From Eledone cirrhosa (taxonomy: Eukaryota), in assembly GCA_964016885.1 (NCBI GenBank), contig OZ024740.1, positions 90,520,001 to 90,584,000 on the forward strand: a stretch of 64,000 nucleotides of DNA, given 5' to 3'. How positions within the stretch are numbered: the stretch's first letter is position 1; each line of letters begins with the position of its first letter. A model generated the notes under the pieces. The model worked only from the letters and a program-made list of their open reading frames with translations. It had not been told where the DNA came from and did not search any database. A program made the position numbers and the translations under genes. This document shows positions 14,930-36,290 of this stretch, in pieces.

Positions 14930-15103
14930 TCAAAAGCATGTATTGAGTTAGAAACTTAAAATAGTCTCATTACAGTCTCATACCAGACTCATTACTGGTT
15001 TGTATTTATTTTTCTTAATTTATTCTTAAATTGAGTCTAGAAAACCCTATTGTCTGTAGTTAGTATTTTTCTCACCTTAGCGATTTTGGTCTATTAAGAT
15101 TTG

Positions 15104-15171
<68 letters not shown>

Positions 15172-15645
15172 AGCGTTCCTTTTTGTTCAGTTAAAATCTT
15201 TTTGCTAGTGTTAATTTAGTAATTTTGCTAGTAATTTAATGAGACTATTTTGAAGTTATAATTCAATACATGCTTTTGATATATTCGGCTCCACTAATTC
15301 GTAGAACTATTTCAAATGTCGTGTAGACCCGGCTGCTATTTTCAGTGGTGTAAGAATGCGCGATACGCTAAGTTCGTGAACCATGTGCGTTATATATATA
15401 TACACACCTTTTCCAGTTTTCTATTTGATTTAGAAGTGAGGAGGATACTAATTTCTTCACCCACTGATGGGCCTGGAATTTGGTATATCTCTTCACAAAT
15501 AACATTGCGTCTGGATGATGGTAGTTACCACAATACTGGTTTGTATTTATTTTTCTTAATTTATTCTTAAATTGAGTCTAGCAAACCCTATTGTCTGTAG
15601 TTAGTATTTTTTTCACCTTAGCGATGTTGGTCCATTGAGATGTGA

Positions 15646-15650
<5 letters not shown>
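14930..15650. mobile_element. Family I fragments (related to 35009-35635), with degenerate HHR at 15458-15517
   Basis: Direct repeat 14993-15107 / 15534-15648; inverted piece 14930-14970 vs 15238-15283; CACCCA-CTGATGG..GTC-TGGATG. Confidence 0.6.
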
Positions 15651-15678
<28 letters not shown>

Positions 15679-15766
15679 ATAAAAAATTGAACAGGGACAG
15701 AACAGAGAGGCAGTACGAAAAATGTTTATTAGATTCACGCTCAGGAGAGTGGGGGGTAGGTGGAGG

Positions 15767-15798
15767 ACGACGTTTCGGGCATAAGCCCTTCTTCAGGT
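15767..15798 (-). ncRNA. Minimal hammerhead ribozyme (family J)
   Basis: Minus strand AC-CTGAAGA-aGGGC ttat GCCC-GAAACGTC-GT. Palindromic ACGT stem III, GUC site, short stem I. Confidence 0.75.
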
Positions 15799-16153
15799 AA
15801 GAGTTCAAAAGGTGTGTAGGGGAGTGGTGGAGAGACATATAGCGAAAGGAAACGGTGCGAATTAAAAATTAACAGGCAAAGAATCATATACGGAAAAAAA
15901 AGGGGTACGGTAACAACATCAAACAGAGGTAATGCGTGGAAGGAAAGACAAAGTGTGGGAAGGTGTGTAAAGTTCGGAGACAGGTCACGGCGGATTAGAT
16001 CGGGGTTGAGCCGGTTGTTAAGTGAGTTCCAAGGATGGAGGCCGTGTGAGCGTGTGTTTTGTATAATAAAAAATTGAACAGGGACAGAACAGAGAGGCAG
16101 TACGACAAATGTTTATTAGATTCACGCTCAGGAGAGTGGGGGGTAGGTGGAGG

Positions 16154-16185
16154 ACGACGTTTCGGGCATAAGCCCTTCTTCAGGT
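16154..16185 (-). ncRNA. Minimal hammerhead ribozyme (family J)
   Basis: Identical motif 387 bp from the first. Confidence 0.75.
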
Positions 16186-16466
16186 AAGAGTTCAAAAGGT
16201 GTGTAGGGGAGTGGTGGAGAGACATATAGCGAAAGGAAACGGTGCGAATGAAAAATTAACAGGCAAAGAATCATATACGGAAAAAAAAGGGGTACGGTAA
16301 CAAAATCAAACAGAGGTAATGCGTGGAAGGAAAGACAAAGTGTGGGAAGGTGTGTAAAGTTCGGAGACAGGTCACGGCGGATTAGATCGGGGTTGAGCCG
16401 GTTGTTAAGTGAGTTCCAAGGATGGAGGCCGTGTGAGCGTGTTTTATATAATAAAAAATTGAACAG

Positions 16467-19100: not shown

Positions 19101-19146
<46 letters not shown>

Positions 19147-19184
19147 ATTAAATAAATGGAAAACTATATTTATAAAACCATATT

Positions 19185-19250
19185 TATTTCATTATATATA
19201 TTTCGGGGATATCATATTAACAATATGCTATGCCTTCATCAGACAAAATA
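19185..19250 (-). ncRNA. Type-I hammerhead ribozyme (family E, left arm)
   Basis: Reverse complement of 19406-19471. Confidence 0.75.
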
Positions 19251-19405
19251 CAATATAAACAGTTTTATAGATAAATATATTCGACATACCGTAATAAACA
19301 TCAACTTCATTTGAAGAGGTTTACTGCTAGCGTAAACCTCTTCAAATGAAGTTGATGTTTATTACGGTATGTCGAATATATTTATCTATAAAACTGTTTA
19401 TATTG

Positions 19406-19471
19406 TATTTTGTCTGATGAAGGCATAGCATATTGTTAATATGATATCCCCGAAATATATATAATGAAATA
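19406..19471 (+). ncRNA. Type-I hammerhead ribozyme (family E)
   Basis: TATTTTGT-CTGATGA-aGGcATAgCATATT gtt AATATGaTATcCCc-GAAA-TATATA-TA-ATGAAATA. Confidence 0.78.
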
Positions 19472-19869
19472 AATATGGTTTTATAAATATAGTTTTCCAT
19501 TTATTTAATATTGTAAATATACTCCAAATATTTGTCGAGTGCTTTTATATCAGTTATAAATATTTACTAGTTGTAACCCAACAATTTTAAATATAACTTT
19601 ACATATATATATATATATATATATATATCTTTTTTTTTAAAATAAAAACTGTGATAATTATTGCTATTTGCTGAACTCCTTTTGTAGAGTTTTTTCAGAA
19701 TGTATTTGACTGCTATTTCTTGTAAATAAACATTCACTTTCGTCCTGACGTCACTAGCCCCGTTTTTCCTCATGTGCTTTTTCATAATTACACATGATGG
19801 CAAACTAGCCAGTTTTACAATTCCCTTTTACGGATTATAATACTGTGAGAGCCCTGGTTTCTGCTGAGC

Positions 19870-19946
19870 TCTGCTGACGATTGAAATCCAACCGTGACCA
19901 TCTCCACAGAAAGTTTTCATGAAATAGTCTTTTAAGACTATACAGA
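19870..19946 (+). ncRNA. Type-I hammerhead ribozyme with long stem III (family K)
   Basis: TCTG-CTGACGA-tTGAAA..loop..TTTCAt-GAA-ATAGTCT tttta-type loop AGACTAT-A-CAGA; 7-8 bp stem III, AUA site. Confidence 0.82.
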
Positions 19947-20494
19947 ACATTTTATGTTATTCCAAATTGAACGATAAGTGTTTTAAACTTTATTTTATCT
20001 TGAGTTAAAGGTCTATTGTTTTTTCCCTGGATTTCACTAAATTCTGTGGATGAATGTATATCCTGATTCTCTTTTGAGATGAGTTTGAATTATTTTTCCT
20101 AAATCTTACGTTAACTACTTTTCCCATCTTGACGTTATAGTCGCATATATGTTATAGAATACTATTAGCTTCTCGCTAAAACAATCTCTATACCTCTCAT
20201 TTTTACTTATACTCGGATTCTTTTCCTAGTGTGCTTAAACTATCTGTGACTAATCCCGGTTTTTTTATAAAAACTCTGATAATTATTGCTATTTGCTGAA
20301 CTCCTTTTGTAGAGTTTTTTTCAGAATGTATTTGACTGCTATTTCTTGTAAATAAACATTCACTTTCATCCTGACGTCACTAGCCCTGTTTTTCCTCATG
20401 TGATTTTTCATAATTAGACATGATGGCGAACTAGCCAGTTTTAGAATTCCCTTTTTCGGATTATAATACTGTGAGAGCCCTAGTTTCTGTTGAG

Positions 20495-20573
20495 CTCTGC
20501 TGACGATTGAAATCCCACCGTGACCATCTCCACTGACAGTTTTCATGAAATAGTCTTTTAAGACAATACAGAG
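20495..20573 (+). ncRNA. Type-I hammerhead ribozyme (family K)
   Basis: CTCTG-CTGACGA...GAAATAGTCTTTTAAGACAATA-CAGAG; 5-bp stem I, one stem III mismatch. Confidence 0.78.
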
Positions 20574-20859
20574 AATTTGATGTTATTCCAAATTGAAGGA
20601 TAAGTGTTTTAAACTTTATTTTATCATGAGTTAAAGGTCTATTGATTTTTCCCTGGATTTCACTAAATTCTATGGATGAATTTATATCCTGATTCTCTTT
20701 TGAGATGTGTTTGAATTATTTTTCCTAAATCTTACGTTAACTACTTTTCCCATCTTGACGTTATAGTCGCATATATGTTATAGAATACTATTAGCTTCTC
20801 GCTAAACAATCTCTATACCTCTCATATATATATATACACACATATATTGGAAACTGTTT

Positions 20860-24300: not shown

Positions 24301-24841
24301 AGATTACTTTCTGGTTATGTTTAATTGAAGCTTTATCTTCATTCTCCTGTAACTCCGCACTAAAGTATAGTCTGATAACAAATTTGTCGAGGGAAAGACC
24401 CGAGTTAGTGTGAGAGCAATTGTATCGTACCTACACACCATGACATATTTAACTCTATGCTTTGGACCTGATCTAGAGTGCCTACACGCGTTTTATTGTC
24501 CAGTTGAAAGATAACAAAGACAATCCATTTTAATTGACGTAACCTATGTAATGTTTACCGAGACAATTTTGCCAGTTAAGATAGTCTCTAGCAACCTAAG
24601 CGAGCATTGAAATCTCACAGGATATGATCTTATTATGCCTAGGCACGCAGTCTTAAAGTTCACTAAGATCAGAGAAAAACATATTTTTGACAACCGCAGA
24701 AGAGTGCAAGGTTGGGGCGCAGCATCTATTCAAGGTAACAAGATGGTTATTATCGAATGAAAGTTTGAAATGCATCAGGCACTCATTTCTACAGATTGTG
24801 AATGATTGAATATTGTTCGTAATGCTAGTAATTTAATTAGT

Positions 24842-25207
24842 TTTTAGTGTTCTGCCAGACCCAGGATTATTTACTTCAGTAAATATCACCGGAATCTAAC
24901 TACGAAATGTTATATAGAAAAGGATAAGATATATTTACAAAACACCATATCGAATACAAGTCTTCATTTTATTATAACTCCGTTATAATTGTGGACACAA
25001 ATATCCTCGTAAATAGTGAGGTATAGTCCAAGCCCATGATTAACATGTTTATCTTCAGTGTTGTTGGTTCGAAGGAAAGGCGCCAAAGAGAGAAAGAGAT
25101 GGCTGTGTTGCCGCTATTTATAACCTCTTTCCGGAAGTTGCAAACGAGAGTTCTAGACTTTCGACGGGAAGTAACTCTATCTACCTCCCTGTCTAGAGAG
25201 CGCTCTA
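24842..25207 (-). repeat. 3' LTR of Gypsy element
   Basis: Direct repeat of 27342-27703, with roughly 6-7% differences counted by eye; preceded by the PPT. Confidence 0.9.
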
Positions 25208-25426
25208 AGACTCCCCTCTAAGACGAGACGTCGAATGACCAAATTAAATCATTGTAGCGAGAACATGAGGAGCAAAGCAAAAGGTACAAGAACATGAATG
25301 AATAAAACATGAAGAAAAATGTAACTGGAACAATAAATAATCAAAACAGTACAAGGGAGCAAGGAAAATAGTGCTCAAAAATAAGTTTAAAATTGTTCAA
25401 AGTCAGATAAGTAATGCTACTAGAGG

Positions 25427-27290
25427 TTAAACGAATATTGTTTTTGAGAGTTTCCGTGGCCATATTACTGTCCTGCCACTTCGTGTGACATATGGTTGTG
25501 TGGTATGTGGTCTTTCCGGTGGAGGTGAAGGTGTTTGTTTGGGAGTGTATGTGCGAGATATGTCTGGCAATGATGTGAGACTTTCAGAGAAAGCCTTCTT
25601 TGCTCTGTCAACGGATATTACCTCTTTTCGACCATTGACAGCCACTGTGAGGTGTTTTGGTGTGTGCGAATGTACACGAAAAGGTGCATTGTAGGGTGAC
25701 GTAAGAGGTCCCTGGACGGAATCATTCCGTATGAAAATGTGTGTCCACGTAGATATGTCCGATGGAACAGCAGCAGAAATAGATTGGTCACGAGGGTTCA
25801 TTGGTGGAAAATCCGAGAAATACGAACGAATCCTGGTGACATATGATGCTGGGTCAAGATTTGATGAATCCACTGGTGCTAACATTTGTCCAGGAATAGA
25901 CAATGTGGTACAATAAAGAAGTTCAGCCGAAGAAAAAAACCTAAATCTGTCTTAATGGCAGAACGACAACCAAGAAGCACAATTGCCAAACATTCGGTCC
26001 AACGTTGAGGATCATGAGTAGCGCGAAGTGCAGCATTCAACTGTCTATGAAACATCTCGACCATTCCATTGGAGGCTGGATGATAGCTGGTCGTATGAAT
26101 GTGATCAGCACCCAAGTGTCGTGATATTTCACGAAATAAGGAAGCTTCAAATTGGCGTCCACGATCCGTAGTTATTTTAGTAGCAACACCAATGCGAGCA
26201 ATCCAATTGGAAATGAAAGCTCGGGCAACGGACTCTGCTGTTATGTCCACTAAGGGTATGGCTGCAAGGCCACCGAGAGAAACGATCGATACAAGTCAAT
26301 ATGTATGTGAATCCACGACTGACGGACCATGGACCAACAATATCCATGTGTATATGACGGAAACGTGAGTCTGGCGGGCTGAATTTCCCAAGAGGTGCGC
26401 CGATATGCCGATGAATCTTATAGCGCTGACACTTCAAGCAAGAACTTGCTCAACCGGTGATTAAACGACGCATATTAGGCCAGAATAATCGAGCCGTAAT
26501 AAGCTTCACCGTGGCAGCTATGCCAGGATGTGACAAGGAATAAAGTGCATCAAAAACGGTACGCTGATGACAATCTGGAACAAGTGATCTGGGTGAGCCA
26601 GTAAAATCATCGCAGATATTTTTACCTTCAGAAGATGGAAGATGTAAATATTCCGGTTTGCAGCAGGAGAACTGGTCAGAGGAAATGTCCAGCGAATCCA
26701 AAATAGGTTGTTCAATTGCAATGGCAACTAAATCGATATGTGCAGGAGACGCAAGAGAACACATAACAAGTCGAGATAATGCGTCCGCGGATATGTTGGC
26801 AGCTCCAGCTATATGATGAATGTCACTAGTGTACTGGGAGATGAAATCCAAAAGTCTCTTTGTCTTTCGAGATAATCTGTCGGACTTGGTTTGAAGAGCG
26901 AATGTGAGTGGTTTATGGTCTGTGAATACCGTGAACTCCCGACCTTCAAGAAGATGGCGGAAGTGTCTCACAGCAAGATAATCTGCTAAAAGCTCTCTGT
27001 CAAAAGTACTGTAACGTTGCTCTGCTGGATTTAGTTGGCGTGAGAAAAACGACAGTGGTTGAACTTGGTGATCGATTACATTATGCAAAACTGCGCCAAC
27101 AACACGATCAGATGCATCAACAGATAAGGAAAGTCTCGTATTTGCAACATGATGGGCAAGGAAAGAAACTTTAGCTCACTCAACCTTGAGGGATTTAAAG
27201 GACTGCAATGCATCGGCAGAAAGTGAAATAGGAGCATTTTACTTTTTCGCAGCCTTTAACGACTGTGTCAAGGGAACAACATGTCCGCAG
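25427..27290 (-). pseudogene. pol: Gypsy pol remnant: connection/RNase H + integrase, frameshifted
   Basis: VDASDRVVGAVL, PLSFFSRQL..YSTFDRELLA, FTDHKPL (RNase H); SHPG..KCQRYK (Zn finger); HMDIVGP, TTDRGRQFE, YHPASNGMVE (DDE core); SPYNAPF (GPY/F). Confidence 0.93.
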
Positions 27291-27294
27291 TTTT

Positions 27295-27341
27295 TGACTC
27301 CATATCAGAAGGCTGCATGTTCAGATCACGTCGTGTCACCA
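27295..27341 (-). other. Extended primer-binding site: 47-nt complement of the tRNA-Trp 3' half including CCA
   Basis: Plus strand TGACTCCATATCAGAAGGCTGCATGTTCAGATCACGTCGTGTCACCA resembles the metazoan tRNA-Trp(CCA) 3' part (TGACTCCAGATCAGAAGG.TGCGTGTTC.AATCACGTCGGGGTCA-CCA, recalled consensus). Confidence 0.85.
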
Positions 27342-27703
27342 CGTTAGTGTTCTGCCCGACCTAGGATTATTTACTTGAGTAAATATCATCGGAATCTAGC
27401 TACTAAATTTTATACAGAAAATGATAAGATATATTTACAAAACACCATATCGAATACATGTCTTCATTTTATTATAACTCCGTTATAATTGTTGTACACA
27501 AATATCCTCGTACACATTTAGGTATAGTCCGAGCCCATGATTAACATGTTTATCTTCAGTGTTGTCGGTTCGAAGGAAAGGCGCCAAAGAGAGAAAGAGC
27601 TGGCTGTGTTGCCGCTATTTATAACCTCTTTCCGGAAGTTGCAAAAGAGAGTTCTAGACTTTCGACGGGAAGTAATTCTAACTACTTCCCTGAGAGCGTT
27701 ACA
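27342..27703 (-). repeat. 5' LTR of Gypsy element
   Basis: Starts TGTAACGCTCTC on the minus strand and is immediately followed by the TGG of the PBS. Confidence 0.9.
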
Positions 27704-28094
27704 GGTTCAAGGTATAGATACCGGGTTGTTCATAATACAGTATATAGAGAAGAAAACAATATGTTTTAGAAGCGTGGACAACGCTGTCTTTACACCTGTT
27801 GAGAAGCGCTAACGTTATGGTATCTCCCCTTTTTATGGCGAAATATTCTCTCACTAGAGTTTGTCCAGGTGTCTATAATTATAGAAGGCTGCTCTGTGCA
27901 TTTTGATTTACTCTCTTAATTAATGTGTGTTTTCTACTCCTTTCGTAGATCTTATGTGTTTCACTATAGTGGTTCGTTATCCGCTGTAATTGAAATTATA
28001 CCTCTTTGTATTTTGTTTTCTATATGTTGTGTGTATTATGAAGAGCGCGGTATCAATACCTTGGGCTCGTGAAATTGCAGGCGTTTGACGCGAG

Positions 28095-28134
<40 letters not shown>

Positions 28135-28137
<3 letters not shown>

Positions 28138-28695
28138 CAAGGTTTAGCAAATAGAGAAAAAGTTTTAAAATAAATTTTAAAAGGTTTACTGTACTTATTA
28201 TATTTACCCTTACCGCGCCGTTTCAAGTCTCAAAATAAATGGATAATCCATGCGGAACATCATTGAGAAGGAGGATTTCGTCAGAGGGTTCTTCTCACTC
28301 GGAGAATATAAAATTCCCGCGTTCAACTCACGAACTGGCGCCATGCAGAACTCTTCCCGGATGAGAGTGTATGATAAAGAAACAATATTTTCTAGTGCCG
28401 TGTGTAAAGCTAGAAGGCAAAGGCGGAAAGGTCAATGTCCTGCCACTAGAAATAGCAGCAGTTAAAACGACCAACATTTTATCTCGATCTTAGATTAATA
28501 ATAAAAAAAGTATGTTTTCCTACGTGCAAAAAATGCATGGTGTTCCGCATGGATTATCCATTTATTTTGAGACAACGCGCGGTAAGAGTAAATATAGTAA
28601 GTACAGTAAACCTTTTAAAATTTATTTTAAAACTTTATCTCTATTAGCTAAACCTTGATTATCTATGTTCTGGCTCGTTAATTTACGCATATAAA
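28135..28695. mobile_element. Family L element with ~125-bp inverted arms (28135-28263 / 28537-28660)
   Basis: Arms are slightly diverged reverse complements; adjacent to (TA)n; contains an HHR on the minus strand. Confidence 0.78.
28206..28289 (-). ncRNA. Type-I hammerhead ribozyme (family L)
   Basis: Minus strand ACCCT-CTGACGA-(long stem II including TCTCAA/TTGAGA)-GAAAC GGCGCG GTA-AGGGT. Perfect 5-bp stem I, near-palindromic stem III. Confidence 0.75.
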
Positions 28696-32082: not shown

Positions 32083-32552
32083 CTACTATAGGCCAGGGAT
32101 TTGGGGAGGAGAAAGCCCATTAGATCGACCCCAGTGCATAACTAGTGCTATATTTTGTCAACCACGTAAGGGTGAAAAGCAAAGCTATCACCGGGAAAAT
32201 ATTAACTCAGAACGTAAATAATATAATATTAAAAAATATTTGTTTCTAAGTTTGGCTCAATGACTGCAATTATCCCATTGCATTACTTGTGTGTAATTTG
32301 ATCGAGCCCGTAAGGAGGAAAGGAAAGCTTATCTACGGTGGGATTTGAACTCAGATCGTAAAGCGCCGTACCTCTATACTGAAAGCATACCGTCTGACCC
32401 TCTATTGATACCGCCAATCCACTGCTCTGTATTAATGATAATAGTTTTACTTTAGGCATAAGCCCAGCAATTAACCAGTGCATTACTGGTACTTTATTTT
32501 ATCGACTCCGTAAGGATGAAAGGCAAAGTAAACCTCGGCGGGATATCGAACT
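32083..32552 (-). mobile_element. Cluster of three decayed tRNA-derived SINEs
   Basis: Repeated TCGACCCC..GGATGAAAGGCAAAG..GGGATTTGAACTCAG motifs. Confidence 0.75.
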
Positions 32553-33705
32553 TAACAATTCTTGCTTGCATAAATTGGCTTTTCTTGGCTTAGCTCACAT
32601 CCTGCGACATATACTGGCTATCTGAGTGCATCAGACTTGTAGGCCATTTAGTTAACATCTCTCAGGTAAAAAACATGATTAAAATGCGACATAATAATAA
32701 TAATATAACATTAATTCGCACATAAAAATCCACTCTCTTTATCTTCTCAATAAGATTCTCTCGGTTTCAGTGCGTTAATTTCTCTATAGCTTGTATTTGT
32801 TTCCTCCATGAACAACACATATTATTAATTATAATCAGCTCCTTTATCATCATTATCATAACCATATCTTTCTCAAAATCTTGTCGAACACTATTTACCA
32901 TTATCTCTTTATCTTTATTTGTATCTCTATTAAAGATGCTCTGATAAATGAAGCAAATCCTCGGGCAATTTTATTTGTTAATATTGCTTAAATATTGACA
33001 TTTTCGTTTCCTTGTTACATTGCACTGGGTCTGTACGATTTTGAATATATTTGTATAATGAAAAGTTCAAATATTTATTGTATCTTCATATGGTATTCGT
33101 TTGCGCTAAATACCAAGCATTTCCCCCACAATTAAGTGATACATATCATAGCATTTCTGTTTATTTTCCTATTTACTCTATACAGTATATTTACCGAATG
33201 AACGAATTAAAATAGACACACATCGTCGAACAGAGAATATGAATAATGATTGTCCTGGAATTCTCTATGCTATTTATTTAGGGTTATATCCACTTTATCT
33301 GAAAAGTCTATGGTTGTAAGACTTTCAAATGCTGGCACCTTAGATGCTTAATTCCATCTTACAAAGCAGTGAAACATATTCTAACTATAATATGTTAAAA
33401 ACAGTTCAAATTATATTTTAAAAAACTGTTCAGTTGTATTTACTTAACATATTACTTTTAAACTCGCTGTCCTGCATTACCAAATATAAACATTATTAAT
33501 TCAATTCTATTAGTTGATATATATCAATATTACTTTTTGAAAAATAAGGTATAATAGTTATTTTAACTTATATTCAATTGATTTGTATAATACATGCCAC
33601 AAGATAAAATTATTAAAGTCACACATACAAACGCACACACACACACTCTCTTTCACACACACACATACACGCAAAACACACACAAACTCACACACACATA
33701 TATAT

Positions 33706-35823: not shown

Positions 35824-36290
35824 TAATTGTTTCTATTTTAAGCACAAACCAGCAAATGGCCCAGTACATTACTGGTATTTTATTTTATCGACCCTGTAAG
35901 GATGAAAGGCAAAGTTAACCTCAGCGGGATTTAACTCAGAATGGCAAAGGCCGTAACTCTATTCGTCAAAGAATGGCGTCCGACCCTCTACCGATACTGC
36001 CAATCACTGTAAGAAGGAAATCATCGTTTCTACTGTTGGCACTAGGCCAGCAAATTTACCAGTGTATTACTGGTACTTTATTTTATCGACCCCGTAATGA
36101 TGAAAAGCAAAGTTAACCTCGGCGTGATTTGAAATCATAATGGAAAAGGCCGTAACTCTTTGCGTCAAAGCATGCCGTCCAACCCTATACCGATACTGCC
36201 AATCCAACGCCTTTAGAAGAGCCATAACTCTATTCGTCAAAGCATGGCGTCCGACCCTCTACCGATACTGCCAATTCACTGTAAGAAGGA
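35824..36290 (-). mobile_element. Tandem tRNA-derived SINE copies
   Basis: Two full units (~35824-36010, ~36025-36212) and a partial head; B-box and A-box on the minus strand. Confidence 0.85.

Follow-up and report, generated by a model that had tools for sequence, protein, structure and literature searches.

The window, a 64,000-nucleotide stretch of the Eledone cirrhosa genome (contig OZ024740.1, positions 90,520,001 to 90,584,000), contains on its minus strand a deleted Gypsy-type element bounded by two LTRs (27703-27343 and 25207-24843). Its features, in window coordinates, are as follows.

27704..27707, minus strand: left target-site duplication (TSD), AACC, with three of four bases equal to the right copy
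27343..27703, minus strand: 5′ LTR, 361 bp, with boundaries set from five intact-length family copies
27325..27341, minus strand: primer-binding site (PBS), canonical part, the complement of tRNA-Trp 76-59 including CCA, with the C-run one base short
27295..27324, minus strand: over-extension, the complement of tRNA-Trp 58-29 (T-arm, variable loop and anticodon arm), 27/30 matching
27324, plus strand: A58 to G, a likely misincorporation at the putative m1A58; the base is A in 27/27 gene-type loci and altered in 8/39 other one-off fossils
27303, plus strand: G37 to T, a likely misincorporation at the putative m1G37; genome-wide, 3/3 non-G37 anticodon arms are LTR-adjacent fossils
27293..27294, minus strand: two unassigned A's where the deletion is joined (as many as 5 nt under other alignments), with less than 3 nt of microhomology
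25427..27292, minus strand: pol remnant (end of the RT thumb/connection, RNase H, integrase) with stops and frameshifts
25211..25219, minus strand: polypurine tract
24843..25207, minus strand: 3′ LTR, 365 bp, K2P 7.6% from the 5′ LTR
24839..24842, minus strand: right TSD, AACT

The two LTRs are 93% alike (K2P 7.6%) and the 4-bp TSD carries a single mismatch (AACC/AACT), which together with the polypurine tract points to a single, old, integrase-mediated insertion. RNase H and integrase domains remain (Pfam PF17917, PF17919, PF17921 and PF00665). Compared with three intact-length copies, the element has lost ~1.9–2.2 kb comprising gag, protease and the RT catalytic core, and pol resumes just 3′ of the RT-thumb motif FYRRFIP, which is found in all 20 family copies examined. 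The first-pass annotation had the tRNA-like segment joined directly to pol, with gag, protease and RT gone; the loss of about 2 kb and the resumption of pol after the RT thumb hold, and two unassigned A's stand between the tRNA segment and pol. Four public sequencing runs mapped to the window gave zero depth over 27277-27334, which is evidence neither for nor against the junction.

A spacer of 1 nt separates the 5′ LTR from the tRNA complement (27341-27295). Compared with tRNA genes of the same genome and ARAGORN models, plus-strand positions 27295-27341 read as tRNA-Trp(CCA) positions 29-76 with the CCA tail included, in agreement with the earlier description of a 47-nt complement reaching from CCA to the anticodon arm after the 5′ LTR. 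These 47 nt represent 48 tRNA positions, the G67-G70 run being one base short with one further substitution. In the part lying beyond the canonical 18 nt, 27/30 bases agree with the tRNA (p about 1e-11, binomial), so the extended match is significant, as the first reading required. The three mismatches in the over-extension are A58 to G at 27324, G51 to A at 27317, which is a CpG site, and G37 to T at 27303. The copy lies antisense to the tRNA, the orientation expected from plus-strand copying of a primer tRNA.

We searched for tRNA-Trp genes with an anticodon-arm pattern, which gave 74 exact matches, most of them in tRNA-Trp gene arrays. Thirty pattern loci were retrieved, 27 of them gene-type, and ARAGORN called tRNA-Trp in 27/30. 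Over the window ARAGORN called no tRNA: the 5′ half and A box needed for a full cloverleaf are absent and the match ends at position 29, and on these grounds we rejected a tRNA gene or pseudogene as the identity of 27295-27341. An Rfam scan of 26800-27800 returned a single match, to snoU54, which we regard as chance (E = 2.5). We also discarded as unsupported the idea that the CA at tRNA position 29 served as an integrase att end; L078 has no TSD, and LTR starts did not resolve at L067, L068 and L063.

The parent family was assigned as CsRn1-like by clade features (PBS, Gag motif, domain order and TSD) rather than by an RT tree. As described in the available text of the reports on PwRn1 and AgCRs (PMC2582038) and GyRex2 (PMC3587641), this clade combines a tRNA-Trp PBS, a CX2HX9CX3C Gag motif, the order PR-RT-RH-IN and a 4-bp TSD. 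The family shares all of these: it has a tRNA-Trp PBS, the domain order PR-RT-RNase H-integrase and 4-bp TSDs, detected in five copies (three perfect, two with one mismatch), and the CX2HX9CX3C (CHCC) motif is present in 13/20 of loci L080-L099, in one with H to Y; in the window copy gag is deleted. Intact-length relatives encode a DTG protease and an RT (PF00078), and the LTRs end in AA, as in GyRex2 (PMC3587641). Unlike the elements of those reports, the window copy lacks gag-RT and carries a 48-nt primer site; the available text mentions none such (PMC2582038, PMC3587641).

The primer-site match is 9-19 nt long in 26 of 28 LTR-PBS junctions of the family, as had been expected of intact copies. 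The two long exceptions are the window copy (48) and L105/L064 (41), the latter also a deleted two-LTR copy. The window junction is unique in the genome with up to two mismatches allowed, and was again single in a search in which the best 40 of 413 candidates were scored. The family is thus not the source of the long site, nor did the site spread, and the window copy appears to have decayed where it inserted, leaving no daughter copies. Its C-run is one base short, as in 18 of 27 other family junctions.

Further variation was seen at these junctions. One subfamily (L080, L091, L096, L106 and L108) has, just after the 5′ LTR, an 11-nt PBS, a short motif complementary to the T-loop and ~25-nt tandem repeats resembling that motif; L096, the closest intact copy to the window element, belongs to it. 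L100 and L115 have a perfect 18-19-nt PBS followed immediately by a deletion junction, the usual family site being 15 nt, and are likely products of mis-transfer of normal strong-stop DNA.

A pattern-based census gave 48 further loci with similar tRNA copies: 45 pattern matches (both arms of one fold-back being taken as a single locus) together with L061, L031, L173 and L179. After removal of seven loci of one family (family Z, below) and two sharing one junction, 39 one-offs remained. A58 is altered in 8/39 of these (3 C, 3 T, 2 G) compared with 4/265 at other A positions, a contrast that is inflated, since position 58 was left free in two of the patterns while 0-1 mismatch was the most allowed elsewhere among the matches used. 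In the unbiased subset, from a pattern with 57-66 all free, A58 is altered in 4/15 compared with 0/30 at A59/A62 (p = 0.009). G37 is altered in 3/8 other one-off fossils that extend past 37, against 10/298 non-CpG G's. Only three non-G37 anticodon arms occur in 3.0 Gb, those of the window and of two other LTR-adjacent, CCA-ended fragments. Such fragments account for 3/3 non-G37 arms and five among the 74 G37 matches (p = 0.0008, taking 38/74 G37 matches, from one tRNA array region, as genes by assumption).

A halt of plus-strand synthesis at m1A58 has been shown mainly in retroviruses. A58 and G37 are usual methylation sites of tRNA. In the fossils, the changes at these positions are likely misincorporations, and together with the clustered end points they would fit a mature, modified tRNA as template. 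That substitutions at these two positions occur in none of the 27 gene-type loci and recur in independent fossils strengthens the case for read-through of such a tRNA. For the host tRNA-Trp, m1G37, Cm34 and m2,2G26 were assumed from general eukaryotic patterns; in the available text of two sources, m1G37, Nm34 and m2,2G26 are general eukaryotic tRNA modifications (PMC4033218, PMC11417395).

The end points of the 39 one-offs are bimodal, with 14 at 35-38, none at 30-34 and eight at 25-29, so that they cluster at 35-36 and at 25-29; the other 17 end at 39-45, close to the pattern limits. Landing sites could be named for a minority, the partner sequence being unclassified in most one-offs; those named are of the kinds expected for an overrun strand. 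L162 shows mis-transfer into RT with 5 nt of microhomology, and in L031 the tRNA copy runs into gag with a second LTR downstream. Five mini-elements (L065, L211, L216, L221 and L225) consist of an LTR, a 35-41-nt tRNA copy and a second copy of the final 7-22 nt of U5; microhomology at the join is 1-4 nt. In the fold-backs L062 and L072/L073, an LTR and an overrun tRNA copy are followed by an inverted copy leading to inverted LTRs; the turn of L073 lies in the anticodon stem, and the same A58 scar is present on both arms, as expected if one arm was copied from the other. One model of SINE origin combines strong-stop DNA with the primer tRNA; no full-length tRNA-CCA-LTR product was found among the 48 loci.

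We favour, with a probability of roughly 80%, one faulty cycle of reverse transcription, with overrun of the primer followed by transfer of the plus strand to a wrong place in pol. Plus-strand strong-stop synthesis would have run on beyond m1A58 and then m1G37, with a wrong base put in at each, until it stalled at G26 or immediately before it; the copy accordingly stops at 29, or at 27 should the two A's represent a miscopied GA. The over-long 3′ end would no longer have fitted the PBS and would have resumed on minus-strand DNA inside pol, apparently landing by way of untemplated A's rather than real homology. With both LTRs complete, integrase could have inserted the product in the germ line, where it would have decayed in place without daughter copies. 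The first-pass annotation had likewise proposed read-through and aberrant transfer in one event. Its first part is supported by the short primer sites of the family and by the A58 and G37 changes; that the deletion arose in the same event we infer from the coincidence of the tRNA end with the deletion breakpoint. The microhomology between tRNA and pol that it had predicted was not seen: the window junction has 0-2 nt and none of 3 nt or more, and 5 nt occur in the sister event L162.

Several observations count against the one-step reading. The C-run is short, as in the family, whereas a pure tRNA copy should give four C's; one faulty round would then need later slippage or heteroduplex repair. 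The lack of microhomology of 3 nt or more, the TSD mismatch and the absence of private LTR variants also weigh against it. The last of these is uninformative, since the window LTRs share 0 columns of private variants and so do those of two of five intact copies. The TSD mismatch and the lack of a private variant common to both LTRs would also fit a recombinant of two copies from one subfamily, which is possible.

The most serious alternative, which we consider improbable, is a two-step history in which a full-length element with a long PBS came first and an unrelated later deletion of gag-RT happened to end near the tRNA copy. Otherwise complete long-PBS families exist in the genome (families X, Y and Z, below), the window junction lacks microhomology and the copy is old (LTR K2P 7.6%), all of which suit such a history. 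It is opposed by the lack of any long-PBS precursor among the 28 family junctions or 20 longer copies. The breakpoint, moreover, lies 2-5 nt from the tRNA end, in the 25-29 cluster shared by 8/39 unrelated events, and a random deletion would have no reason to stop there.

A DNA source for the tRNA segment, whether a tRNA-Trp gene that underwent recombination or gene conversion with the PBS or an inserted LINE-made tRNA retrocopy, is largely refuted and very unlikely. Donors exist, in the form of the 74 exact anticodon-arm matches, most in gene arrays, and a PBS homology of 15-18 nt could guide an exchange. The genes, unlike the fossils, all have A58 (27/27 gene-type loci) and none is non-G37. 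In none of the 48 fossil loci does the tRNA sequence go beyond position 25 to include the 5′ half or the flank of a gene, and in 39/48 the upstream sequence is common to another PBS-bearing locus, which argues against random insertions. Least credible of all is that the long match is a family trait or chance resemblance: L096 does have a short T-loop-like motif after its 11-nt PBS and other families do have fixed 32-40-nt sites, but the short junctions of 26/28 family copies and the 27/30 match beyond 18 nt refute it.

Fixed long primer sites were found with a looser pattern, which gave 740 matches, tRNA genes included; 56 loci were newly fetched among the matches listed, and of these at least 31 belong to family X and at least 15 to family Y. 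Family X (L195, L196 and L198; e.g. G000:C1:236.62 Mb) is a ~2-kb element, with a pol match in none of six longer loci tested. Three copies have identical LTR pairs and perfect 4-bp TSDs. Its primer site of 32 nt is followed by a duplicated U5 end and a degenerate PBS, position 58 is changed from A to T in 30/31 copies, and the family X pattern has 146 matches in the genome, including tandem arrays on C14. Family Y (L188-L193) encodes a CHCC Gag and pol, and its 32-nt site corresponds to the U47 isodecoder, with A58 unchanged. Family Z (L200-L203 among its copies) also encodes a CHCC Gag and pol and has 39-40 nt of primer complementarity; it is split into three copies with A58/C47 and four with T58 and either U47 or another base. 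In families Z and X, positions 58 and 47 co-vary, as scars and isodecoders would.

Judged by their sequences, the three families resemble products of overrun that kept their mobility. A broader proposal, which we put forward tentatively and think rather less probable than its converse, is that overrunning m1A58 is routine in the tRNA-Trp-primed CsRn1-like elements of this genome. Its products would then form a germline record of the host tRNA modification map (A58, G37 and stops before 34 and 26), and some would have founded families whose 32-40-nt sites act as extreme over-extension sequences, with which overrun strands could still complete a correct transfer and be copied anew from tRNA. If true, re-copying of long sites from tRNA would lead positions 58 and 47 to vary within X and Z like scars and isodecoders.

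Viral contigs searched with the pattern gave no matches, and a metagenome search gave five (L232-L236). The contig of L233, from another source, repeats the arrangement of the fossils, having a 49-nt tRNA copy with G37 changed to T, followed by a gag-protease frame. L234 is a full tRNA, and L236 stops at the contig edge. L232 and L235 were seen to have a 50-nt tRNA-Trp complement ending at 27 upstream of long frames, L235 with A58 changed to G; of the two frames, one encodes a PHD finger and the other has no Pfam match.

The closest known parallel is in HIV-1. Hardy et al. 2025 describe, in the text available to us, 44 defective proviruses that have 7-54 nt of tRNA-Lys3 inserted at the junction of the deletion (PMC12657518), and the mechanism of overrun and mis-transfer is itself already published there. 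Taken alone, the window locus is a dead copy illustrating a known replication error. It resembles the HIV-1 products of delayed second-strand transfer in that LTR, PBS and primer-tRNA sequence beyond 18 nt define the deletion junction (PMC12657518), and likewise its LTRs are intact and the PBS of its parent family is short. Microhomology is not listed as a defining feature in the corresponding text (PMC12657518). Unlike the HIV-1 cases, the window element is an old, germline-fixed Gypsy retrotransposon primed by tRNA-Trp, and some products in this genome appear to have founded mobile families. Position 58 is altered in 5/44 of the HIV-1 tRNA-insert proviruses; the text of that study takes these changes as mutations rather than misincorporation and reports no G37 change (PMC12657518).

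According to the available text of two studies, m1A58 is where plus-strand strong-stop synthesis normally ends, minor stops occurring at later modified bases that include position 37, and in lentiviruses and spumaviruses extra complementarity after the PBS makes passage of RT beyond m1A58 tolerable (PMC13191261, PMC8599865). That over-extension runs to about position 54-55 (PMC13191261, PMC8599865). The window copy goes on to position 29, and in families X, Y and Z the complementarity is fixed as far as position 45 or 37. Read-through of m1A leaves a sequence-dependent misincorporation signature in RNA-seq, described in the accessible part of the source as an in vitro sequencing signal (PMC4787781); here a natural RT appears to have left a signature of this kind fixed in the DNA of the genome.

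In the main text of the open-access literature we found no germline LTR-retrotransposon fossils of primer overrun and no modification scars in genomic copies, nor any 32-40-nt fixed primer sites in LTR retrotransposons or a young family with an A58 scar fixed. What stands out is the recurrence of the error, the position-specific scars and the families apparently founded by overrun products. One genome would hold at least 40 independent, inherited failures of the m1A58 stop, with position-specific scars and clustered ends. From such fossils one can gather in vivo statistics on the primer positions at which a retrotransposon RT stalls; possibly, they also allow tRNA modifications to be read when old DNA is available but no RNA. 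Family X, a young and non-coding family in which the A58 scar is fixed (identical LTR pairs; 146 matches to its pattern), suggests that replication errors can seed new families.

Other repeats were noted in the window. A near-perfect palindrome lies at 19135-19521, with 190-nt arms that are 99% complementary and a 7-nt loop. Inverted repeats of ~125 nt (28135-28265 and 28540-28665) flank a ~280-nt core in a MITE-like arrangement, local tandem duplications occupy 15000-16361 and 19690-20615 (repeats of 300 nt, at 99% and 94%, and of 138 nt, at 94%), and SINE-like repeat copies are present at 32131-32562 and 35831-36276.
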